Positions 2,034 to 14,700 of a stretch of 64,000 bases of DNA are shown one piece after another. Position 1 is the stretch's first letter, and each line of letters begins with the position of its first letter. Origin of the DNA: an uncultured Eubacteriales bacterium (lineage in GTDB: Bacteria > Bacillota > Clostridia > Christensenellales > Aristaeellaceae). The notes beneath the pieces were generated by a model that did not search any database, was not told where the DNA came from, and worked only from the letters and a program-made list of their open reading frames with translations. Made by a program: the position numbers and the translations under genes. The stretch spans positions 7,934-71,933 of the forward strand of contig ONHI01000001.1 in assembly GCA_900317565.1 (NCBI GenBank), given 5' to 3'.

Positions 2034-3137
2034 TCACTTCACCTGCCGTATGGCTTGAGCCTCGCGCTTGAAGCGTCCCGCTCGCATGGCGCGAAAGGTG
2101 CGATAGAAGGGCAGCAGGGGCAGCAGCAGCTTGTGTTTGTAGAACAGGGGATACATGCCGGCAAAGGCGGCGTAGCTCCTGTTCTTTTTGCTGACGGGCA
2201 CCAAAAAGCGGTCCAGCATGTAGCGGAGCTTGCCCCAACCGTGCTTGCGCATTCTGTTTTCTACTCTGTGGTTGATGGTGCCGTAGGTGCCGGAGGAGAG
2301 CATGTAATCCAGCATCTCCCCGTCCGCTTCGGAGAGCGCCTCGCCGCCCAGCAGCCGCAGCGCCAGCGCCCGGTTCTGCTGCTCAAATTCAGCGATCCCC
2401 AGCCTTTCCGCCTCGGCGGCGACATAGTTCATGTTCAGTGGCGCACGGTTCAGGAGGATATAGGTGTCCAACAGCGAGCGCAGACCGGTGCCGCCGCCGG
2501 AATAGTGCTTGTATTCGTGGGCCAGGAAATAGAGATAGAAGTCCTCCGGCGAGAAGCGCTTCTCGCAGCCCTCACCCAACAGGCGATCTTCAACGTTCCG
2601 GTAGTATTCATACAGCTTCTCGTCGTGGCTTGGCCCGAACAGCGCCGAATGCATCTCGAAATTGAGCACCGGGGGCTTGTGGTAGATGTCATGGTTGCTG
2701 GTGCCGAATCGCTCGGTGGTGAAGCCCAGCCCCTCCATGACGGCGCGCACGTCCCCAGCCCGGGTGGCGTCAAACAGTATGTCGTGGTCGGCGAATTCCC
2801 GCATGCCGTATTTCGGATAGTAGCTCTTCAGCACCGCGCCCTTCAGCGGCATATACCATATGCCCCGCGCCTCCAGCTGTGCCTTTATGTCGTTCCACGC
2901 CCTTTCAAACAGCGCGGTCTTGCGCATGGCTGCGGCGATGGCGGCGGCGGAACGGCTGTCACGGACGCCCGCGCTCTCCAGCGCATAGGCGATGGCCGCC
3001 CCGATCAGATGGCGGGCGGCGAGGGCATATACCGCGTCCAGATCCATGGTCCGGACCCTGTCGGCCTCCGGAACCGTACCGTTCACGGCGCAGGCTGCCA
3101 GATAGATCGCGTCCCGCGCGGTCCTGTTTTGCGTCAC
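2034..3137 (-). CDS. Nucleotidyltransferase family protein (PF14907/NTP_transf_5-like), last gene of the RiPP operon
   Basis: ORF 2034..3266 trimmed to GTG 3137, which has a ggag SD and sits 19 nt after the peptidase stop. MPLKGAVLKSYYPKYGMREFADHDILF and HSALFGP motifs. Confidence 0.75.
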   Translation of the reverse strand: MTQNRTARDAIYLAACAVNGTVPEADRVRTMDLDAVYALAARHLIGAAIAYALESAGVRDSRSAAAIAAAMRKTALFERAWNDIKAQLEARGIWYMPLKGAVLKSYYPKYGMREFADHDILFDATRAGDVRAVMEGLGFTTERFGTSNHDIYHKPPVLNFEMHSALFGPSHDEKLYEYYRNVEDRLLGEGCEKRFSPEDFYLYFLAHEYKHYSGGGTGLRSLLDTYILLNRAPLNMNYVAAEAERLGIAEFEQQNRALALRLLGGEALSEADGEMLDYMLSSGTYGTINHRVENRMRKHGWGKLRYMLDRFLVPVSKKNRSYAAFAGMYPLFYKHKLLLPLLPFYRTFRAMRAGRFKREAQAIRQVK

Positions 3138-3156: not shown

Positions 3157-3540
3157 TCAGTGTCGGTTGCGCCTGATTCCCAGCCTTCTCGCCACCCGTC
3201 CCGCCAGGCGGCGGCAGCGGACGAGGCAAGCCCGCAGGGGATAGATCGCGTTCCAGAGGCGGGCATACCGCAGGTAATGGCGGTCCGACGCGCTGTACTG
3301 CCTGCCCTTGCGCACGAAGCCGGTCAGCACGCCGATCACGGCGCTGTCCGGCACGTGTTCGACGGCGTAGGTGTTGTCGCCGCGGATCAGATAGTGGTCG
3401 CCTTCCACGCCGATCACCCGGTGCAGCACGTAATCCTTGCCCCGCCGGTACAGCGCCACGTCATACTTTTTGAGACGTGAAACGGGGACCTGTATGATCA
3501 CCAGGTCCCGGTTCTGCCGCAGCATCGGCTCCATGCTCAC
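3157..3540 (-). CDS. S24/S26 superfamily peptidase (SipW/Sec11-like Ser-His type), start uncertain
   Basis: G-V-S-M-E-P nucleophile motif and VLHRVIGVEGD...IRGDN box. The homologous reading frame continues upstream to about 3603 without any ATG/GTG/TTG. Confidence 0.7.
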   Translation of the reverse strand: MSMEPMLRQNRDLVIIQVPVSRLKKYDVALYRRGKDYVLHRVIGVEGDHYLIRGDNTYAVEHVPDSAVIGVLTGFVRKGRQYSASDRHYLRYARLWNAIYPLRACLVRCRRLAGRVARRLGIRRNRH

Positions 3541-3601: not shown

Positions 3602-3862
3602 TTATTCCTCCAGCGCGTTGATCTTTCGCAGTGTGTCGATGATATTCGCCACGTCCCCGGCGATTTCCTGCCGTGGCGCGTCGTATTTTGCGGTCATGGC
3701 GTCCACGATGGCCGCCTGTGTGGTCTCCTGCTTCAGACAATCCACGATGAAGGCCGCGGTGCTGTTACTGCGCACGATGCCGCTGAACGCCTCCGCGCCC
3801 ACGGGCACCAGGAACTGGATGTCGTCGATGGTCTGGGTGATGAAATTGGATTTCAGTTTCAT
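3602..3862 (-). CDS. PqqD family peptide chaperone (RRE)
   Basis: 86 aa. FLVPVGAEAFSGIVRSNSTAAFIVDCL...AIVDAMTAKYDAPRQEIAGDVANIIDTL is typical PqqD architecture. Lies 11 nt after the rSAM gene. Confidence 0.85.
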   Translation of the reverse strand: MKLKSNFITQTIDDIQFLVPVGAEAFSGIVRSNSTAAFIVDCLKQETTQAAIVDAMTAKYDAPRQEIAGDVANIIDTLRKINALEE

Positions 3863-3873
3863 GATGTTTCTCC

Positions 3874-5193
3874 TTAGCAGATGGGGTTTTCCCCGTCGGT
3901 ATTTTCGCTTTCTTTCTTTTCCACCATGCGCTTGAGGGCGTCAATTGCCATCAGTTCATGCACCTGGCGGCAATGGGTGTCCTGTACGGGGCAGGTTGCG
4001 AAGCTGGTGCAGTCCGGCAGGAAGGGGCAGGCCTTGCACTTTTCCCGCGTCCTGTCCACGCGGCAGAATTCTTTTCTGGCGGCCGCGTCAGTGACGCCGT
4101 GCCAGATGTCCCCGAACCGGCTCTCCTCCGGGCAATGCTCGCAGGGGTACAGACTGCCCTCGGGTGTGATGACCACGCTGTCGCCATCGGCCATGCAGTG
4201 GTTGACGCGAAAACCAAGTCCCAGGCCCATAAAAGGCGCGCTCTTAAATCCCGCCTCCTCGATCAACCACCAGGCGTCCTTGATCTTTTCCCACATGGGA
4301 ACGTCGTTTTCACCCAGTCGCACGGCATTCAGCGGAGCCAGGTACACGCCCACCTTGTCCTTGTTCCGCACGTTCTCCCGCAGATCGGAAAGAAACCGGG
4401 GGATCCCGTCCCAGTTTTCCTCGTCCACATTGCAGCGAATGGTCACGTCAATGCCCGCCGCGCTCATGTCGCTGACCGCTTCCATGACATTGTGGTATTG
4501 ATCGTGGTCGGCGTAATAGCGCTTGCGGGAAATGTAATCCTGCTCCGCGCCGTCCATGGAGATCTGGATGTGGGAAAGGCGCCAATCGCCTGTCATCTTC
4601 GCCACGATCTCCGGGGTGATCAGGCTGCCGTTGGAGATCATGCTGGATTTATAATCGAGTCCTGCTTCCCGCAGCCCTTCGCAGACGCGGTCAATGGTCT
4701 TGACCCCCAGCAGCGGTTCCCCACCAAACCAACTCAGCTTCACCTTATCGCCTTCATGGGTATCGAGGATGTAGCGGATCACCTGCTCCACGATCTCCGG
4801 CGTCATGGTCACCTGCTTCATGCCCTCCTCGTAGCAGTAGACGCACCGGGCGTTGCAGCCGAAGGTGGGCAGGATGGTATAGCCCCGGATACCCTTTTTC
4901 CGGTTGTAGGCCCGCATGAGGGCGGAAATCTGGTTGTACCAGTTGCATTCGTCCTTGTTCTCAGGCACGAGGAATTGGGCTGCGATCAGATCGTCCCAGC
5001 CCTCTCCCGCCCTGGCCGATTCGGGCAGCACACCTTCGATGCACTGCTTGGTCAGATTGTGGAACACATACTGCTTCCCGCCGTGGTCGAAGGGCATAGC
5101 AAACTGGGAGGGAATGTAGTTGATATCAGAACGCGGACTGACAGGCGGGAGGAGCTTAGTCAGCGTCGCGTCGGGCTTGCGTATCTCGATCAT
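3874..5193 (-). CDS. Radical SAM/SPASM peptide-modifying enzyme
   Basis: CNARCVYC (CxxxCxxC) cluster, GGEPLL, and a C-terminal Cys-rich SPASM region (CMADG...YPCEHC...CKACPFLPDC...CPVQDTHC). About 100-aa N-terminal extension. Confidence 0.9.
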   Translation of the reverse strand: MIEIRKPDATLTKLLPPVSPRSDINYIPSQFAMPFDHGGKQYVFHNLTKQCIEGVLPESARAGEGWDDLIAAQFLVPENKDECNWYNQISALMRAYNRKKGIRGYTILPTFGCNARCVYCYEEGMKQVTMTPEIVEQVIRYILDTHEGDKVKLSWFGGEPLLGVKTIDRVCEGLREAGLDYKSSMISNGSLITPEIVAKMTGDWRLSHIQISMDGAEQDYISRKRYYADHDQYHNVMEAVSDMSAAGIDVTIRCNVDEENWDGIPRFLSDLRENVRNKDKVGVYLAPLNAVRLGENDVPMWEKIKDAWWLIEEAGFKSAPFMGLGLGFRVNHCMADGDSVVITPEGSLYPCEHCPEESRFGDIWHGVTDAAARKEFCRVDRTREKCKACPFLPDCTSFATCPVQDTHCRQVHELMAIDALKRMVEKKESENTDGENPIC

Positions 5194-5210
5194 TTCATAA
5201 CCTCAAAGGG

Positions 5211-5248
5211 GCATATGCAGCACACGGGATTGGCGTATGCTGCATATG
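5211..5248 (-). promoter_or_regulatory. Intercistronic stem-loop between the precursor genes and the rSAM gene
   Basis: gcatatgcagca (5211-5222) pairs with tgctgcatatg (5238-5248). 11-bp stem, 15-nt loop, no clear U-run. Confidence 0.5.
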
Positions 5249-5396
5249 TTTCGGACGGATCAATAGTTTTCGCTATCAATACGTACCAGTGCAAAAGTTG
5301 AAATTATCACCGCTTAAACAGATAACGGTATTCACCGGCGCCGAAAGAGCACCAAGGATAGCCCTATCTCTGAGCAGGAAAATGAGCCAGTATCCA

Positions 5397-5510
5397 TTAG
5401 CCAAACCAATCATCATATGCTGGTACATCAACAGGTGTACAGCTGGTCACGATCACATTCTCTCCGTTAAGTTCAATAACCTCAAGTTCAGGCTTCTCGT
5501 ACTTCTCCAT
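5397..5510 (-). CDS. RiPP precursor-like peptide A1 (37 aa), not in the ORF track
   Basis: Own translation: MEKYEKPELEVIELNGENVIVTSCTPVDVPAYDDWFG. GGAGGA SD 7 nt upstream of the ATG. TAA stop at 5397-5399. Confidence 0.8.
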   Translation of the reverse strand: MEKYEKPELEVIELNGENVIVTSCTPVDVPAYDDWFG

Positions 5511-5612
5511 GAGTATATCCTCCTTTCCCGCAAAATCATCTATGGCAATCTTGGCGCAAAGTAGCGTCAAGAATGTCCCTATTTGATTGAGAGGGAAAAG
5601 ATTTTTACTTCA

Positions 5613-5759
5613 TCAATCACCTTCACCACCCCACCATGGTACATCAACAGGTGTACAGCTGGTCACGATCACATTCTCCCCGCTCAATTCAACGATTTCC
5701 ATTTGGGGCTTAATGTACTTTACAGTACCCCCCCCGATTTGCGAACGCACGTTCTCCAT
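5613..5759 (-). CDS. RiPP precursor-like peptide A2 (48 aa), not in the ORF track
   Basis: Own translation: MENVRSQIGGGTVKYIKPQMEIVELSGENVIVTSCTPVDVPWWGGEGD. ATG lies 2 nt after the stop of the kinase-like gene. An internal Met (MEIVEL) is an alternative start. Confidence 0.75.
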   Translation of the reverse strand: MENVRSQIGGGTVKYIKPQMEIVELSGENVIVTSCTPVDVPWWGGEGD

Positions 5760-5761
5760 AT

Positions 5762-6508
5762 TCATTTCCTTTCTGCCCTTTCCGGGCTGTGTATTCCTTC
5801 CCAGGCTGTCAGAGCCGCTTCCGGCTCCATATTGCAGCCAAGGGTATAGAAATCAACTGCATCCAGCAGCTGTTTCTCCAATTCAATCACCCGCGCCATT
5901 GTCGCGGGATGCTTTGAGCCGAAGCACTGTTTCATCAGGACCGGAAAGGCATCCGCCCGGCTCATGTGCGCAATGTGGTTGCTTTCATCCCGGGTCAGGT
6001 TCACAATGGCTTTCAGCTTCGCGGAGGCGTTGCGGCTCAAATGGTGTTTCCCGTCCCAGGGCGTGCCGTACACCCTGATACCGGTTTCACCGATGCGCAG
6101 CATGGGCTTATCGTCGTTGATCATCCACACCCGATCCCCGAAGACCTCCCGCCAAAGCCGGGCGTGGGTGCTTTTGCCCGTGCCGGATTTAGCGGTGAAA
6201 ATGTACGCCTCCCCATCCATGCACAGGGCCGAGCCGTGCATCAGTAGCACGTTTTCCCAAACCAGCCTTTCCGCCAGCATAGAATGGATGGCATTGTTTT
6301 CCAGAAAGCCGTCCGTTCTCTTGTGCTTCGGAATGCCCTCCGCTTCGTCCGTCCGGTCGAAGTCCGCCTGCATTTGCGCCAGGTCCGCGTCGTCAGGCGC
6401 TATGGTGAAGGCTGGGTTCCCGTCCGAGGAGTAGTCCCGCAGGAAGACCTCGTTCTCCGGGAAGCGGCAGAGCACCTGTGCGGTCACGCCCGCAAGTTCA
6501 ACGATCAT
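5762..6508 (-). CDS. HPr kinase-like / ScmC-like P-loop protein
   Basis: LMHGSALCMDGEAYIFTAKSGTGKSTHARLW resembles the HprK C-terminal P-loop region. Start overlaps the TetR stop by 11 nt. Confidence 0.7.
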   Translation of the reverse strand: MIVELAGVTAQVLCRFPENEVFLRDYSSDGNPAFTIAPDDADLAQMQADFDRTDEAEGIPKHKRTDGFLENNAIHSMLAERLVWENVLLMHGSALCMDGEAYIFTAKSGTGKSTHARLWREVFGDRVWMINDDKPMLRIGETGIRVYGTPWDGKHHLSRNASAKLKAIVNLTRDESNHIAHMSRADAFPVLMKQCFGSKHPATMARVIELEKQLLDAVDFYTLGCNMEPEAALTAWEGIHSPERAERK

Positions 6509-7175
6509 TTCGGTTTTTCCTTTGCCCTTCCTGTCCGCAGTATTTGGCCAGCAGCAGCTCCTCCAGCATGATCAGCTCGCTCTCCGGGTCGGCGCCCTGC
6601 TCCGGAACGTATACCAAGCCGACGGCATAGCGCGTCACTGCCGCCAACATGATGTGGAACGAGCTGGATAACATAGCCGTCTCGGGAATGTCCGTGTTCA
6701 GCGTGCCGTCCCGCAGGCCGCGGACATACATCGCGTGGAACTGTGCAGAGAGCGCGTCTACCATGCGCATGTAAGGCTGCCGCTGTTCCGGACGACCCTG
6801 CTCGGTGCGCAGGAAGCTGTTGAAGTTGTAGTTGAAGCGCAGTATGTCGCTGTGGTTGCGGTAGAGGTCGAGGAAGGCGTCCAGGAAAAAGCGCAGGTAT
6901 TCCGCGGCGCTCAGCTGTTCAATGGCCTCCGCCGTCAGAAGCGTGTCGCGCGCCTCGATGTACTCCTCCCACTTCCACGCGCCGATGGCGACGACCAGGT
7001 CCAGCTTCGTGGCGTAGTAGCGATAGAGGGTTGCCCGCGCCACGCCGCCCTCCTGGGCCACCTCGGGCATGGTCACCGGCTCGATGCCCCGCTGGGAGAA
7101 CAGGCGAAAGCCCGCCTCCAGTATCCGGCGGCGCTTTTCCGCTCTCCACGGTGCTTCGGTTCGCACATCTTTCAT
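6498..7175 (-). CDS. TetR/AcrR family transcriptional regulator
   Basis: N-terminal HTH RRRILEAGFRLFSQRGIEPVTMPEVAQEGGVARATLYRYYATKLDLV. First gene of the operon. Confidence 0.9.
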   Translation of the reverse strand: MKDVRTEAPWRAEKRRRILEAGFRLFSQRGIEPVTMPEVAQEGGVARATLYRYYATKLDLVVAIGAWKWEEYIEARDTLLTAEAIEQLSAAEYLRFFLDAFLDLYRNHSDILRFNYNFNSFLRTEQGRPEQRQPYMRMVDALSAQFHAMYVRGLRDGTLNTDIPETAMLSSSFHIMLAAVTRYAVGLVYVPEQGADPESELIMLEELLLAKYCGQEGQRKNRNDR

Positions 7176-7210: not shown

Positions 7211-7227
7211 TGAGACTTTACGTCTCA
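7211..7227 (-). promoter_or_regulatory. Candidate TetR operator
   Basis: Inverted repeat TGAGAC-n5-GTCTCA, located 2 nt downstream of the -10 box. Confidence 0.5.
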
Positions 7228-7228
7228 A

Positions 7229-7257
7229 ATTATATATCGGATTGCTATGCTTGTCAA
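7229..7257 (-). promoter_or_regulatory. Sigma-A type promoter of the RiPP operon
   Basis: On the minus strand: TTGACA (7257-7252), 17-nt spacer, TATAAT (7234-7229). About 50 nt upstream of the TetR ATG. Confidence 0.7.
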
Positions 7258-9831: not shown

Positions 9832-10092
9832 TATTAAAACTCATGTTAATATATTAACCCGAATGTGGGAAAAAATCAAGGGGTTCCGAAAGGTTTTACA
9901 CGGGGAATGCCATTATTTATTTCCGAAAACCGCCTTTTTTGCGAAAATCGTGACCGCAAAGGAACAAAACCTGGTAATTTGCCGTCCAAGCGAAATAGAG
10001 GAAGGAATATTCCCCGCGGGCGGCGAATATTCCGTGGGATAAATCAGGTTTACTATGCACATACGCAGAACAATGCGCAGGAGGTCCTACAT

Positions 10093-13000
10093 ATGAACAG
10101 AAAGCATCGCATCGGAATACTGTGGCTGGCAGTAATCGTGTGCCTGACGCTGCTGGCGTCGGCGCTGCCGGTCCTGGCCGAGGGGGACGGGGGAGATCCC
10201 GCGCCTGATCCGACGACCTACAACTACACCTGGGTCTTCGGCAACGGCCAGGACAACGCCACCGAATCCACCACGGAGTCCCGCGTCGCGGGCGACAAGG
10301 GCACCCCGGAGTGGAAGGGCCACACCTTCAACGGCTGGTCCAAGTCCGAGGACGGCACGAACATCACCTACACCGCCCAGTGGACGGTCAACCAGTGTAC
10401 GGTGAAGTTCGTCTCCGAGGGCTCGGAGCTCAGCTCCAAGGCCTATGATTACGGCACCAAGGCCGGGGACATCGCCAAGCCTGCGGACCCCACCAAGGAG
10501 GCCACGGCGGAGAACAGCTATACCTTCGCCGGCTGGGATCCCGAGGTCGCGGACGTGACCGCGGATGCCACCTATACCGCGAAGTTTGACGCCGCCAAGC
10601 GCAGCTACACCATCACCTGGAAGAGCGACGACGGCTCGACCATCGAGACCACCACGGCGGAGTACGGCGCGACCCCGAGCCACGCCGACGCCACCAAGGC
10701 AGATACGGCGGAGTACACCTACACCTTCACCGGTTGGGATCCCGCCATCGCGGCGGTGTCCGGCGACGCCACCTATACCGCGAAGTTTGACGCCGCCAAG
10801 CGCAGCTACACCGTCACCTGGAAGAACGACGACGGCAGCGTCATCGACACCGCACCGGCGGAATACGGCGCGACCCCGAGCCACGCCGACCCGACCAAGG
10901 CCGAGGACGAGCATTACACCTACGCCTTCGCGGGCTGGACGCCCGCCATCGCGGCGGTGACCGGCGACGCCGAATACACCGCTTCATATAATAAGACCGG
11001 CAAGCCCTTCACCGTGAAGTTCGTGGACGAGGACGGCGCCACCTCCCTGGGCGAGACCTCCTATCCCTACGGCACCGCGGCGGCGGGCATCACCGCGCCC
11101 ACCGTGGCGGACAAGTCTGACGAGCACTACACCTATACCTTCGCGGCCTGGGAGCCCGCCCTGGCGGACGTGACCGGCGCTGCGACCTACAAGGCCACCT
11201 ACACCAAGACCGGCAAGCCCTGCACCGTGACCTTCGTGGATTCCGACGGCACCACGGTCCTGGGCACCGCCCAGTATCCCTACGGCACCGCGGCGGCGGG
11301 CGTCACCGCGCCCACCGTGGCGGACAAGTCGGACGAGCATTATATCGTCGCCTTCGCCGCCTGGGAGCCCGCCATCGCGGACGTGACCGGCGACGCCACC
11401 TACAAGGCGACCTACACCCAGACCGGCAAGCCCTGCACCATTACCTTTGTGGATGCGGACGGCACGACCGTGCTGAAGGAGGCCGCCCAGTATCCCTACG
11501 GCACCGCGGCGGCGAGCATCGCCCAGCCCGAGGCCCCCGTCAAGGCCGCGGACGAGACCAACACCTATACCTTCGCCGGTTGGGAGCCCGCGCTGGCGGA
11601 CGTGACCGCCGACGCGACCTACAAGGCCGTCTACACCGCGACGCCCATCGCGCCCCAGGTCGTGGCGATCGCCCAGTTCCAGGCCCTGCCGGCGACCGGC
11701 GAGAACCTGACCTACAAGCCTGCCATCGCGACGGAGCTGGCCAAGCTGCCCGCGGAGCTGGACGTGGTCCTGGCCGACGGCACCGCCGCCAAGGCCCCCG
11801 TGACCTGGTCCTGCGCAAATTACGACGCGGCCTATGACGGCGCGTTCGTGTTCACCGCCGCGCTGGCGGAGAACGCCCCCAACCCCGTGGCGGAGGGCGT
11901 GGCGATGCCCACCTTCACGCTGAACGTGGCCCCGGGCGTCTATACCGACGCGACCGGCGTCTTCGGCTACCGGCTGAACGAGCAGAACCTGGCGGCGATC
12001 ATCACCTTCGCGCCCACCACTGCCACCGAGGTCGTGGTGCCCGAGACGATCGAAGGCGCGCAGGTCACGAACATCGAGGCCGCGACCTTCAAGGATCAGA
12101 AGACCCTGACCAAGATCGAGCTGCCCAAGGGCCTGAAGGCCATCGGCGACAATGCCTTCGAGGGCTGCGTCGCGCTGGAGACCCTGGTCGTCCCGGATTC
12201 CCTGGAGACCCTGGGCGCGAACACCACGCTGAACGACGCGGCGCTGAAGCACCTCACCCTGCGCACCGATCTGGATTCCACCATGAGCGCCAAGGACACC
12301 GTGGATCACACCGTGACCGCGGAGGACGGCACGCAGACCCCCTACAGCATGAAGCTGCCCGCGAGCATCAACGACATCATCGTCAACGCCGGCACGCTGA
12401 CGCTGGATTGCAATTACACCGTGGGCAAGAAGAACAGCGTCACCGTCATCCAAGGCGCGACGCTGACCCTGCCGGAGAAGCGCACGCTGACCAACAACGG
12501 CACCGTCACCAATTACGGCACCGTGACCAACAACGGCACGATCATCAGCTGCGGCGGCACCTGGGGACAGAACGCCTCCACCCAGGGCAAGAAGGGCAGC
12601 TTCACCGACAAGCACGTGTATGAATCCGGCGTCTGCACCGTCTGCGGCGCGGAGGAGGAGTTCGTGGTCACCGACCTGACCATCGCCTACAAGGGCGCTG
12701 CGCTGACCAAGGTCTACGACAAGACCCGCAACGTCACGCTGAAGGGCTCCGATTTCAAGATCAGCGACACCCAGGAGGGCCACACCGCCGTGCGTATCAC
12801 CGCCATCAAGGCGGCCTACGACAGCGCGGATGTGGGCAAGCGCACCGTCTCCGTCAGCTTCACCATCGGCGGCGACGATGCCAGCCGCTATCGCACCAAG
12901 AGCATCAGCATCCCGGCCACGATCACGGCCAAGACGCTGACCATCACCCCCACCGAGGGCCAGAAGAAGGTCTACGGCGCGGCGGATCCCACCTATTTCA

Positions 13001-14700
13001 CCGGCAAGGTCAAGGGCCTGCTCTCCGGCGACACCATCACCGGGCGGCTGAGCCGTGAGGTCGGCGAGGACGTGGGCAAGTACAAGATCATCCAGGGCAC
13101 CATCGATCCCGGCGCAAACTACGCCGTGGAGGTGGGCGAGGCCTACTTCGAGATCGAGGCGAAGTCCATCAACAGCTCCGACGTGGGCCTGGTCACCATC
13201 GGCAACCAGCGCTACACCGGCAAGGCCATCGAGCCCGAGATCACGCTGCGCTTCGGCGCGAACACCCTGAAGAAGGACACCGACTTCAAGGTGGAGTATT
13301 CCGACAACAAGGAGCCCGGCACCGCCAAGGTGAAGCTGTCCGGTATGGGCAATTACACCGGCGAGCGCGAGACCACCTTCCGCATCCTGAACATCAACAG
13401 CGACGGCGGCTCCGGCTCCGGCTCCGGCAGCTCCGGTGGCAGCGGCGGCTCCGGCGGAAGCTATCGCCACAGCGGCTTCAGCGACGGCGATTACGAGGAC
13501 GCCGATGAGGACGACGACATCTTCGACGACGAGGATGACGACGACGAGGACGAGGAAGACGAGGACGAGGATATCGGCCGGCTGCTGCTGGACGACGTCG
13601 ACTACGGCACCGTGCTGTTCGACAGCGAGGGCGATCCCAAGGCCTTCGTGCTGTTCGAGGAGCAGCTGGGCACCCCCGAGGAGCCCGAGCGCATGCTGAC
13701 GATCATCCCCGAGCCCATGAAGGACGAGGAGACCGGCGCGAGCATCTACCTGGAGGAGGGCGGCCGCGAGAAGTACGAGGAGTCGCACCTGCGCCTGGGC
13801 ACGGCCCTGATCCAGACCCTGGAGGACAAGCAGGTCAAGGAGATCATCTATGAGATGGAGCAGGCCGACCTGCACATCCCGGTGGCCTCCCTGGTCAGCG
13901 AGATCCCGCTGGACGCCCCGGACGCCTCCGAGGGCATCGAGGCCACGGACGACACCGAGGAGCTGGAGATCGCGCCCAACACCCTGCAGGTGGCCGGCTA
14001 CGACATCTGCCTGGAGCAGTATGACGCCATCGAGCCCGAACAGCGCGAGCGCGAGGACGCCGTGCTGGAGACCTACGAGATGATCGCTCCCGCCTATCGC
14101 GTGCGCGTGCGCGTGATCCCCGAGGGCCAGGAGCAGCAGATCGAGGATCCCGGCCTGGCGATCGATCCCGAGCAAGAGGCGCTGACCGTCGAGGATGAGG
14201 AGGACGACGCGGAGGACGAGGACGAGGCCGTCGAGCCCGCTTCGCCCTACGAGAAGCTGCCGGAGGGCTGGTATCCCGAGGGCATGACGCTGATGCTGCT
14301 GCCCAGCGACGACCTGGAGCAGGCCCCCGAAGGCGCGGAGTCGGTCTACATCTCCATCATCGAAGATCCCGAGGATGTGGACGAGGTCCAGAACACGCCC
14401 GTGGAGTTCATCAACCAGGAGGGCATGCTCTACGCCAACATCCCGCTGTCCAGCGACGGCGTGTACACCGTGACCGCCCCCGAGGGCTGGAACGAGACCG
14501 GCGAATTCGCTGACCTGTCCGAGTATGAGGGCTCCGGCGAGGAGGAGGAAGGCGTGGACGATTTCGACATTGACGAAGGCGACGACGGCATGGAGGACTT
14601 TGACGAGGACTTCGATTTCGGCGGCGGCAGCTTCGGCAATCTGAGCGGCATCGGCTCCACCTTCGAAGTGGACGAGAACGGCAATCCCATCGAGCACTGA
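10093..14700 (+). CDS. Secreted multi-repeat surface protein (Listeria-Bacteroides repeats, BspA-type LRR, MBG/Ig-like domains, acidic tail)
   Basis: ATG 10093 with AGGAGG SD. Signal peptide MNRKHRIGILWLAVIVCLTLLASALPVLAEG. Repeated YTFAGWDP...DATYTAKF units. LRR segment IELPKGLKAIGDNAFEGCVALETLVVP. KVYGAADPTYF MBG-like segment. GS-rich then D/E-rich C-terminus. Confidence 0.85.
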   Translation: MNRKHRIGILWLAVIVCLTLLASALPVLAEGDGGDPAPDPTTYNYTWVFGNGQDNATESTTESRVAGDKGTPEWKGHTFNGWSKSEDGTNITYTAQWTVNQCTVKFVSEGSELSSKAYDYGTKAGDIAKPADPTKEATAENSYTFAGWDPEVADVTADATYTAKFDAAKRSYTITWKSDDGSTIETTTAEYGATPSHADATKADTAEYTYTFTGWDPAIAAVSGDATYTAKFDAAKRSYTVTWKNDDGSVIDTAPAEYGATPSHADPTKAEDEHYTYAFAGWTPAIAAVTGDAEYTASYNKTGKPFTVKFVDEDGATSLGETSYPYGTAAAGITAPTVADKSDEHYTYTFAAWEPALADVTGAATYKATYTKTGKPCTVTFVDSDGTTVLGTAQYPYGTAAAGVTAPTVADKSDEHYIVAFAAWEPAIADVTGDATYKATYTQTGKPCTITFVDADGTTVLKEAAQYPYGTAAASIAQPEAPVKAADETNTYTFAGWEPALADVTADATYKAVYTATPIAPQVVAIAQFQALPATGENLTYKPAIATELAKLPAELDVVLADGTAAKAPVTWSCANYDAAYDGAFVFTAALAENAPNPVAEGVAMPTFTLNVAPGVYTDATGVFGYRLNEQNLAAIITFAPTTATEVVVPETIEGAQVTNIEAATFKDQKTLTKIELPKGLKAIGDNAFEGCVALETLVVPDSLETLGANTTLNDAALKHLTLRTDLDSTMSAKDTVDHTVTAEDGTQTPYSMKLPASINDIIVNAGTLTLDCNYTVGKKNSVTVIQGATLTLPEKRTLTNNGTVTNYGTVTNNGTIISCGGTWGQNASTQGKKGSFTDKHVYESGVCTVCGAEEEFVVTDLTIAYKGAALTKVYDKTRNVTLKGSDFKISDTQEGHTAVRITAIKAAYDSADVGKRTVSVSFTIGGDDASRYRTKSISIPATITAKTLTITPTEGQKKVYGAADPTYFTGKVKGLLSGDTITGRLSREVGEDVGKYKIIQGTIDPGANYAVEVGEAYFEIEAKSINSSDVGLVTIGNQRYTGKAIEPEITLRFGANTLKKDTDFKVEYSDNKEPGTAKVKLSGMGNYTGERETTFRILNINSDGGSGSGSGSSGGSGGSGGSYRHSGFSDGDYEDADEDDDIFDDEDDDDEDEEDEDEDIGRLLLDDVDYGTVLFDSEGDPKAFVLFEEQLGTPEEPERMLTIIPEPMKDEETGASIYLEEGGREKYEESHLRLGTALIQTLEDKQVKEIIYEMEQADLHIPVASLVSEIPLDAPDASEGIEATDDTEELEIAPNTLQVAGYDICLEQYDAIEPEQREREDAVLETYEMIAPAYRVRVRVIPEGQEQQIEDPGLAIDPEQEALTVEDEEDDAEDEDEAVEPASPYEKLPEGWYPEGMTLMLLPSDDLEQAPEGAESVYISIIEDPEDVDEVQNTPVEFINQEGMLYANIPLSSDGVYTVTAPEGWNETGEFADLSEYEGSGEEEEGVDDFDIDEGDDGMEDFDEDFDFGGGSFGNLSGIGSTFEVDENGNPIEH
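10420..11640 (+). repeat. Intragenic tandem repeats (about 201-210 nt units) in the surface protein gene
   Basis: For example, gccacctataccgcgaagtttgacgccgccaagcgcagctacacc occurs at 10567 and 10768. GKP[FC]T[VI].FVD units recur three times. Confidence 0.8.

Follow-up and report, generated by a model that had tools for sequence, protein, structure and literature searches.

The window analysed here is a stretch of 64,000 nucleotides (nt) from contig ONHI01000001.1 of an uncultured Eubacteriales bacterium (assembly GCA_900317565.1). On its minus strand lies an operon with a radical S-adenosylmethionine (rSAM) enzyme that carries a SPASM domain, and upstream of this enzyme gene there are two small open reading frames (ORFs), called A1 and A2. 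They encode precursors of an rSAM-modified RiPP, a peptide made on the ribosome and modified after translation, and sit in an unusual modular set of genes. The family they belong to is real, widespread and unannotated.

A1 occupies positions 5397-5510 of the minus strand, stop codon included, and encodes 37 amino acids (aa): MEKYEKPELEVIELNGENVIVTSCTPVDVPAYDDWFG. A2, at 5613-5759 on the same strand, encodes 48 aa: MENVRSQIGGGTVKYIKPQMEIVELSGENVIVTSCTPVDVPWWGGEGD. Both were obtained by translating the minus strand. A hidden Markov model (HMM) of the leader matches only A1 and A2 across the whole 64-kb window. The initial annotation of this DNA had arrived at the same two translations, and the independent reading agrees with it. 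A1 consists of a short leader, MEKYEKPELEVIELNGENVIVTS, followed by the core CTPVDVPAYDDWFG. A2 has a long leader, and its core is CTPVDVPWWGGEGD.

The A1 start codon has a Shine-Dalgarno sequence, AAAGGAGGA, 8 nt 5' of its ATG; the initial annotation had given A1 a strong GGAGGA element. For A2, there is an alternative in-frame ATG at 5765, which gives 50 aa and overlaps the stop codon of the upstream gene. The start at 5759 is likelier because AAAGGA sits 7 nt 5' of that ATG. Public gene calls of A2 use either start (48 and 50 aa).

These ORFs are easy to miss. An ORF list with a threshold of at least 60 aa has only plus-strand, antisense ORFs across the A1/A2 region, as was remarked earlier, while at 30 aa both minus-strand ORFs show up. 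The exact A1 and A2 sequences exist in a public protein collection, unnamed, and in some assemblies gene callers omit them or call an antisense ORF instead. Pfam and NCBIfam scans of A1 and A2 gave no family. The only sub-threshold match was that of A1 to the paeninodin-family leader (lasso_PadeA_fam).

The operon runs along the minus strand in the order TetR, HprK/ScmC-like kinase, A2, A1, rSAM/SPASM maturase, PqqD, S26-like peptidase, NTP_transf_5. Upstream there is a GH94 phosphorylase gene. On the downstream side the operon is bounded by a GNAT gene in convergent orientation, together with NUDIX and CBM9 genes.

The maturase (3874-5193, 439 aa; PF04055 and PF13186) is a peptide-modifying type of rSAM/SPASM enzyme with an extra N-terminal domain. 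It is followed by a discrete PqqD-type RiPP recognition element (RRE) of 86 aa at 3602-3862 (PF05402, E=1e-13). Then come an S24/S26-like Ser/His peptidase, a candidate leader peptidase (3157-3540), and a nucleotidyltransferase-fold protein of 367 aa at 2034-3137 (PF14907, NTP_transf_5, E=1.8e-39). The probable start of the latter is GTG 3137, where start and N-terminus match relatives; the longest ORF reaches 3266. Its K-G...D160-x-D162 motif is invariant in 19/19 homologs. On the other side of the precursors, at 5762-6508, is a 248-aa P-loop kinase-fold protein of HprK/ScmC type, for which the precomputed Pfam match PF27840 (ScmC) is weak. All of these genes are on the minus strand.

For comparison, 79 reference-genome loci were collected through a maturase alignment, and 10 metagenome loci were added. 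More than 1000 proteins match the maturase at E <= 1e-20, though some of these may belong to neighbouring rSAM families; among the best 120, identity is 58% or higher. The matches in reference genomes are almost all metagenome-assembled genomes of rumen or gut Clostridia (Ruminococcaceae, Oscillospiraceae, Lachnospiraceae, Christensenellales). There are a few isolates among them: Sarcina sp. DSM 11001, Ruminococcus flavefaciens YL228 and Ruminococcus sp. YRD2003.

A tblastn search of the 79 reference-genome loci with the window proteins, in which many loci are truncated contigs, found PqqD in 46, the kinase-like protein in 32, the peptidase-like protein in 30 and NTP_transf_5 in 19. The gene order of this cassette is conserved across loci, and close relatives show the same operon.

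The precursors themselves are also conserved. A search with A2 of 5.8 billion proteins returned 14 called peptides, all with the leader up to ...ENVIVTS and with varied cores: CTPVDVP-DYDDWF, CTPTDGVP-WWGGEGG, duplicated CTPN-TSCTP units, or multiple Cys. Run against 24,055 stop-to-stop ORFs, the leader HMM picks out about 88 precursors, spread over about 70 of 83 loci and almost always adjoining the maturase and on its strand. A profile of the close peptides was also compared with 1.84 billion representatives. This gave 132 clusters at 50% identity (E <= 1e-3), nearly all of 30-70 aa, which share a common leader and have hypervariable cores.

This amounts to a family of more than 200 small peptides with the leader M-x-K-Y-x-K-P-x-[LM]-E-[VI][IV]-x-[LI]...V-T-S. 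The motif KY.KP.[LM]E[VI][IV]EL, previously called leader-like, matches this conserved leader ahead of V-T-S. C-termini are not conserved in the family. Tails with aromatics (WW, YDDWF, WxxW) are kept in the close clade and not family-wide. A small ORF next to a modifying enzyme, with a conserved leader, a hypervariable core and coding conservation, is what a generic RiPP precursor looks like, and A1 and A2 fit this description.

Some loci carry more than the usual precursors. Extra ones lie downstream of PqqD in L080 (5597-5746), L083 (4165-4383), L003 (8289-8891) and L006 (7623-7757). Duplicated TSCTPN units occur in some precursors (P0007-P0009, L082), and P0258, at 130 aa, resembles two precursors fused in one ORF.

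The substitution pattern is that of a protein. In ten close paralogs and orthologs, pooled over 23 gap-free codons, the proportion of synonymous sites that differ (pS) is 0.51 and that of nonsynonymous sites (pN) 0.15, a pN/pS of 0.30. A1 and A2 are real ORFs under purifying selection as protein. Conservation of the ORFs in homologous loci, with a synonymous bias, had been named as the check on the coding claim, and homologous ORFs with this bias do occur beside homologous maturases. The proposal that A1 and A2 are paralogous RiPP precursors serving the adjacent rSAM and PqqD genes is thus supported by the linkage, by the coding signature, and by the lack of evidence for an RNA or DNA element, discussed below.

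Family-wide conservation stops at ...V-T-S, and variability starts at the very next residue. Among 211 parsed precursors, Ser occupies position -1 in 200, Thr position -2 in 162, and V, T, L, I or A position -3 in 202, counts that come from a regular expression which itself partly constrains positions -1 to -3. Type I signal peptidases follow the rule that -1 is small and -3 is small or aliphatic. Because the junction fits this rule, the co-encoded Ser/His peptidase is the candidate leader protease, which would cut between V-T-S and C.

The cores abound in Gly, Asp, Cys, Pro, Thr and Glu, with Cys at 10% of core residues. Of the 211 cores, 186 contain one Cys or more, and 145 have their first Cys at position 1-2. 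In both A1 and A2 the sole Cys is the first residue of the core, where it could serve as the Cys donor of a thioether. The close clade keeps a C-x3-D unit in which the intervening residues vary: CTPVD, CTPTD, CTPMD, CTPID, CTSMD, CVTAD, CKPVD. PapB cross-links C-x3-D units in freyrasin. Since this unit is kept in the clade and PapB cross-links such a unit, a thioether from Cys1 to Asp5 is the best guess for A1 and A2.

The favoured explanation, with a probability of about 0.72, is that A1 and A2 are translated precursors of an uncharacterised family of rSAM/SPASM-modified RiPPs, which receive a ranthipeptide-like Cys1-Asp5 thioether and are released after Ser(-1). In its way of working, the pathway most likely resembles those of ranthipeptides or sactipeptides. 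The earlier suggestion of thioether or C-C cross-links and O-phosphorylation on these peptides is plausible, judging by the residues present.

What binds the leader, how the core is cross-linked, where the precursor is cleaved and how the products are tailored we infer as follows. The leader, Y-x-K-P-x-[LM]-E-[VI]-[IV]-E-L...V-I-V-T-S, would be bound by the discrete PqqD, as in Firmicutes lasso peptides. This is proposed because the leader is lasso-like, because the leader HMM also scores lasso precursors, and because A1 has a sub-threshold match to the paeninodin-family leader. PqqD would present the C-terminal core to the rSAM/SPASM enzyme. This enzyme would then most likely form a thioether between the single Cys, the first residue of the core, and a residue close by, presumably Asp5 of the C-T-P-V-D (CX3D) unit, as in ranthipeptides.

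The signal-peptidase-like Ser/His protease would next cut off the leader after Ser(-1) of the V-T-S junction. The released products would be 14-residue acidic aromatic peptides, CTPVDVPAYDDWFG and CTPVDVPWWGGEGD. Finally, the analogy with PadeK/PsmK and PsmN suggests that the kinase-fold and nucleotidyltransferase-fold proteins would probably attach a decoration based on phosphate.

For the kinase step there is a structural argument. The AlphaFold2 model of the kinase-like protein has a mean predicted local distance difference test (pLDDT) score of 92.6, and its top Foldseek matches are phosphoenolpyruvate carboxykinase (PEPCK) and HprK/P, at E ~1e-6. A PDB sequence search with this protein found nothing significant, so that only the fold search is informative, and NCBIfam HprK_rel_A matches below its cutoff (E=0.0026). 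Across 31 kinase-like homologs, neither the P-loop S108-GTGKST-114 nor the Asp pair D132-D133 varies. The protein has a P-loop fold of the HprK/PEPCK type, with Walker A motif and an Asp pair for metal binding. D132-D133 correspond to D158/D159 of the lasso kinase PsmK, where this pair is essential (PMC6993621). PsmK and PsmN phosphorylate the C-terminal Ser of pseudomycoidin and are needed for a hexose to be added onto the phosphate (PMC6993621).

Ranthipeptides (freyrasin, made from PapA by PapB, and thermocellin, from CteA and CteB) resemble the window system in several ways. Both have an rSAM/SPASM maturase with an N-terminal domain of peptide-binding type, and both have Cys-containing, acidic cores, with one C-x3-D unit each in A1 and A2. 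CteB (5WGG) is also the closest solved structure to the window maturase by sequence in the PDB (E=9e-11). By fold, it ties for best with TigE, which does not make thioethers: the AlphaFold2 model of the maturase (pLDDT 81) has TigE and CteB as top Foldseek matches, both over the full length at E=2.5e-14, followed by anSME, ChlB, SkfB and SuiB.

There are differences as well. The window cluster has a discrete PqqD, a lasso-like leader, an S26-like peptidase, a kinase-fold protein and NTP_transf_5, none of which belong to the ranthipeptide picture, and 12% of the family's cores are Cys-free. SCIFF peptides have six Cys where A1 and A2 have one, and freyrasin has repeated CX3D motifs where A1 and A2 have a single one. 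The NCBIfam scores of the maturase say the same: 127 bits against a cutoff of 525 for TIGR04463, its best match, 102 against 340 for PapB (NF047865), and 54.6 against 425 for SCIFF (TIGR03974). The nearest curated families (TIGR04463, Clo7bot, geopeptide, PapB, CefB) all act on Cys-rich peptides, and the maturase is far below the cutoff of each. Membership of SCIFF, PapB, Clo7bot, TIGR04463, CefB, FlmE/OhkG and SynChlorMet was rejected in each case on the curated cutoffs.

A number of observations weigh against the favoured explanation. Measured against every curated family cutoff, the scores of the maturase, PqqD, the kinase-like and the peptidase-like protein fall far short. TigE, the top structural neighbour of the maturase, makes cyclopropyl groups instead of thioethers. 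The cores of 25 of the 211 family members (about 12%) have no Cys, and the junction statistics are in part a product of the expression used to parse them. A1 ends in Gly and A2 in Asp, and neither has the C-terminal Ser that lasso kinases phosphorylate, so any phosphorylation site must differ from that of the lasso systems. Lastly, the window cluster has lost the ancestral start of its peptidase gene and has no ABC (ATP-binding cassette) transporter.

The best surviving alternative accepts A1 and A2 as genuine precursors and gives the rSAM enzyme another reaction, with the Cys in some other role. That reaction could be a C-C or C-O cross-link within the tail with its many Trp, Tyr and Phe residues (as in streptide, triceptides or darobactin), cyclopropanation as by TigE, or epimerisation. 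TigE is the cyclopropyl synthase of the TigB/TigE cyclopropylglycine RiPPs and, like the window maturase, an RS-SPASM RiPP maturase from Clostridia (PMC10878394). Its likeness to the window maturase has a TM score of 0.63 at 15% sequence identity. Because TigE makes cyclopropyl groups and CteB thioethers, the fold of the maturase is that of a RiPP SPASM maturase but does not fix the reaction. The substrates of TigE are repeat peptides modified at aliphatic residues, and A1 and A2 have no such repeats.

The Cys-free cores bear on this alternative too. With about 12% of cores lacking Cys, the thioether cannot be the universal reaction of the family; such cores are either non-substrates or the maturase chemistry is independent of Cys. 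They are acidic and Pro-rich (for example NEPPWYDDELD; P0279, P0301, P0307, P0345, L054), and their leaders are canonical. The aromatics kept in close-clade tails would suit a cross-link there, but they are limited to that clade. Cys, on the other hand, is present in 88% of cores, usually at position 1-2, and the nearest curated maturase families work on Cys-rich peptides. A non-thioether reaction is therefore the less likely option, though one to be taken seriously.

Next is the possibility that the cluster is decaying in the window strain: the precursors are intact and the pathway is unproductive. This starts from the peptidase. The protein can be aligned to the boxes of a signal peptidase: G-V-S-M-E-P to the Ser box of type I signal peptidase and L-H-R-V-I-G to the V-K-R-I-I-G box, with His for Lys. 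The His in place of the general-base Lys is the arrangement of ER (endoplasmic reticulum)/SipW-type signal peptidases, with which the protein also shares the G-x-S-M-x-P Ser box and the [VL]-x-R-[VI]-I-G box, and whose substrate junctions are likewise small at -1 and small or aliphatic at -3. Ser23 and His61 are invariant in 34/34 homologs.

Unlike those S26 signal peptidases, the protein has no N-terminal membrane anchor and scores about 26 bits with NCBIfam, against cutoffs of 47-52. The other matches are also weak (sigpep_I E ~5e-6, below cutoff; Pfam S24, PF00717, E=0.008). Encoded in a RiPP operon, it would act on a cytoplasmic leader and not on a secretion signal.

In the window strain, the peptidase gene lacks its ancestral ATG, expected at about 3605 where it would overlap the PqqD stop codon. 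The relatives' ATGAAC... has become ATAAGC..., with an indel in addition. The frame stays open, but translation could begin at GTG 3540 at the earliest, immediately ahead of the catalytic Ser, which leaves 127 aa instead of 154. This suggests a possible loss of function. The second point is export. Two close relatives have a 550-aa ABC transporter between the peptidase-like and NTP_transf_5 genes (L080 6207-7859, L083 4857-6509), and comparison with these loci shows none in the window cluster or in L082. Without it, export and immunity must be supplied from elsewhere or have been lost. Given both the lost start and the missing transporter, the pathway may be impaired in this strain.

Against decay, every other operon gene is full length. 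Five independent metagenome assemblies contain the window locus with 100% identity, which marks the strain as an established one. L082 is also without the transporter, which suggests a viable architecture, and the peptidase-like gene is absent altogether from many loci. Decay is accordingly an improbable account, less so than some and more so than a different rSAM reaction.

A1 and A2 share a stretch of DNA that had drawn attention from the start. The 42 nt at 5421-5462 are identical to those at 5637-5678 (minus strand), as a repeat search confirmed. They are the first part of a direct repeat, 5421-5504 and 5637-5720, of 84 nt at 82% identity. The bases flanking the identity differ on both sides, so that the identical stretch is exactly 42 nt. 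In the 14 leader codons adjoining it, A1 and A2 differ at 15 places, several of them synonymous.

The block encodes ENVIVTS followed by CTPVDVP. It had been described as a shared 14-aa block, and the identity stands. As a shared core it does not, because conservation ends at V-T-S: the 14 residues are the last seven of the leader and the first seven of the core.

Where does the identity come from? Compared segment by segment, A1 has three different affinities. Its upstream spacer is 96/101 identical to one in L083 that lies ahead of another precursor with a short leader. Its block agrees with A2 at 42/42 positions, and with orthologs at only 36-38/42. Its tail matches DYDDW-type cores (20/24 in L080, 18/24 in L082), as opposed to 9/24 in A2. 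A1 is a mosaic gene, and the 42-nt identity is for that reason taken as the footprint of recombination or gene conversion between tandem paralogs. Other combinations of leader and tail are found among homologs, for example P0012 and P0004. Such recombination between tandem paralogs appears to reshuffle leaders and cores across the family as well.

A sixth metagenome assembly (L089), from the same strain, has a variant A1 core. Two adjacent base changes at the equivalent of window positions 5418-5419 turn ...VPAYDDWFG into ...VPDYDDWFG. The window allele, VPAYDDWFG, is the derived one, since the VPDYDDWFG form occurs in other relatives.

That the block is primarily a functional RNA or DNA element (a riboswitch-like structure, a protein-binding site or a recombination signal) and not coding sequence is very hard to believe: its perfect identity next to 14 leader codons with 15 differences invites the idea, but orthologs vary in it mainly at synonymous sites, it does not fold (z=+1.2), an Rfam search of the A1/A2 region found no match, and the mosaic structure of A1 accounts for the identity. 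The synonymous changes in orthologs include ATC/ATT, ACC/ACG/ACA, AGC/AGT, CCT/CCA/CCG and GTT/GTG/GTA. Over the block codons ENVIVTSCTP, pS is 0.48 and pN 0.087 (ratio 0.18) in the same ten close paralogs and orthologs. This reading, which had been put forward as the one that could undo the coding interpretation, was rejected on the synonymous variation, the absent fold and the lack of an Rfam match.

Lasso peptides deserve a closer look, because so much of the operon resembles them. Firmicutes lasso peptides such as paeninodin and pseudomycoidin, with others in rumen Butyrivibrio and Ruminococcus, have the leader M-K-x-[WY]-x-x-P-x-[LIM]-E-x-[LI]-[ED]-I...T at -2. Two of their leaders, MKKDWTIPTLEVLDINMTMA and MKAWNTPVIETLEINETAA, each followed by G at the junction (PMC7533575), resemble Y-x-K-P-x-[LM]-E-[VI]-[IV]-x-[LI]. 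Here, the leader has Y-E-K-P-E-L, which is of the YxxPxL type, and a Thr at -2 in V-T-S before C. In 6/7 cases, real lasso precursors get a higher score from the leader HMM than any of 200 shuffles.

Also shared are a small discrete PqqD-type RRE, an HprK-family kinase with P-loop and Asp pair, an uncharacterised nucleotidyltransferase and, in some loci, an ABC transporter. The best NCBIfam match of PqqD is lasso_PqqD_Strm, at 34 bits and below cutoff, and its only near-significant PDB match is the lasso B1 protein TfuB1, at a weak E=0.11.

The resemblance ends at the enzymes that make a lasso. There is no lasso cyclase and no B2 cysteine protease of transglutaminase type in the operon or in related cassettes, and every operon gene is accounted for; in their place are the rSAM/SPASM enzyme and the Ser/His S26-like peptidase. 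The cores have no Asp or Glu at positions 7-9: A1 and A2 have Pro7, Ala or Trp at 8, and Tyr or Trp at 9, and Asp8 exists only in the L089 allele. Without a cyclase, a B2 protease or a ring-forming acidic residue, these are not lasso peptides, and the idea that A1 and A2 are lasso precursors was dropped as extremely improbable despite the leader, the B1-like PqqD, and the kinase and nucleotidyltransferase genes so typical of Firmicutes lasso clusters.

SynChlorMet systems share a different subset of the genes: an HprK-like protein of the ScmC family (PF27840), a PqqD-like protein (ScmD) and rSAM/SPASM enzymes (ScmE/ScmF). The Pfam-level ScmC match, marked weak for the window protein, is the only link. 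The scores are low (13 bits against 125 for ScmC, TIGR04249, and 45 against 400 for ScmE, TIGR04250), there is one rSAM enzyme instead of two, and the precursors and taxa are different. To our knowledge, the SynChlorMet product is itself uncharacterised.

The remaining features of the operon concern its expression. A sigma-70-type promoter, TTGACA-17-TATAAT, with 12/12 matches to consensus, lies at 7229-7257 (minus), upstream of the TetR gene, and probably drives the operon. Directly downstream of it, at 7211-7227 (minus) and ahead of the TetR gene, is the palindrome TGAGAC-N5-GTCTCA, a candidate TetR operator, which would imply an autoregulated operon. The TetR-family regulator itself (6498-7175, minus; PF00440, E=1.3e-14) is the first operon gene, and it holds the same position in the close relatives L080, L082 and L083.

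The spacer between A2 and A1 (5511-5612, minus) contains a strong hairpin of -35.5 kcal/mol (z=-5.2), and 0/200 shuffles fold as well. It pairs CUUUUCCC with the A1 Shine-Dalgarno sequence, and from the predicted fold it may control A1 translation or stabilise the mRNA. Its counterpart in L083 is the spacer at 2353-2453, mentioned above. No structure of this type was found in the distant loci L008 and L023. Kept in close L083 and not in those two, the hairpin is not a family-wide feature.

The spacer between A1 and the maturase (5194-5396, minus; z=-3.3) contains an inverted repeat. A 15-bp perfect hairpin at 5212-5248 sits directly upstream of the maturase ribosome binding site, and a GC-rich hairpin follows the A1 stop codon at about 5340-5360, both on the minus strand. 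These could attenuate read-through and keep precursor mRNA above enzyme mRNA.

Elsewhere in the window, a plus-strand ORF of 1611 aa at 9865-14700 combines leucine-rich repeats of the BspA type with Listeria-Bacteroides repeats and an Ig-like domain, and ends in a long low-complexity region rich in Asp and Glu. The product, probably located at the cell surface, has no relation to the precursors.

As for earlier work, RRE-Finder reports about 300 proteins from the discrete lasso RRE model that adjoin rSAM enzymes, and treats them as false positives (PMC7470986). This remark is the only published trace found of a comparable architecture. A literature search on peptide strings, the gene combination and domain accessions found no description of the family; it covered subscription journals thinly and is therefore no proof of novelty. 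The main text of the rSAM compendium paper and of the RaS-RiPP review does not mention the architecture.

A bolder interpretation is that this is a distinct and abundant RiPP class of rumen and gut Clostridia, in which a lasso-type module of leader, RRE, kinase and nucleotidyltransferase is joined to an rSAM/SPASM maturase and a cytoplasmic Ser/His leader protease. Its products would be short, acidic, cross-linked peptides, possibly with phosphate or phosphoglycosyl groups, and with some members Cys-free the cross-link chemistry may be new. This is a tentative idea, somewhat more doubtful than not. Uncharacterised rSAM RiPP families turn up regularly.

The finding does illustrate that small precursor genes are often missed, or displaced by antisense ORF calls, and that whole natural-product families can be hidden in this way. 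The leader HMM, combined with the junction rule (V/T/L at -3, T at -2, S at -1), is a practical handle for annotating them. The cluster is also a case of modular RiPP evolution, where a lasso kit for leader, recognition and tailoring has been paired with another core enzyme and another leader protease. The recombination footprint in A1 shows the shuffling of leaders and cores as a means of product diversification. Most of the family is found in the rumen microbiome, a setting in which antimicrobial and signalling peptides matter for fermentation, methane and feed efficiency.

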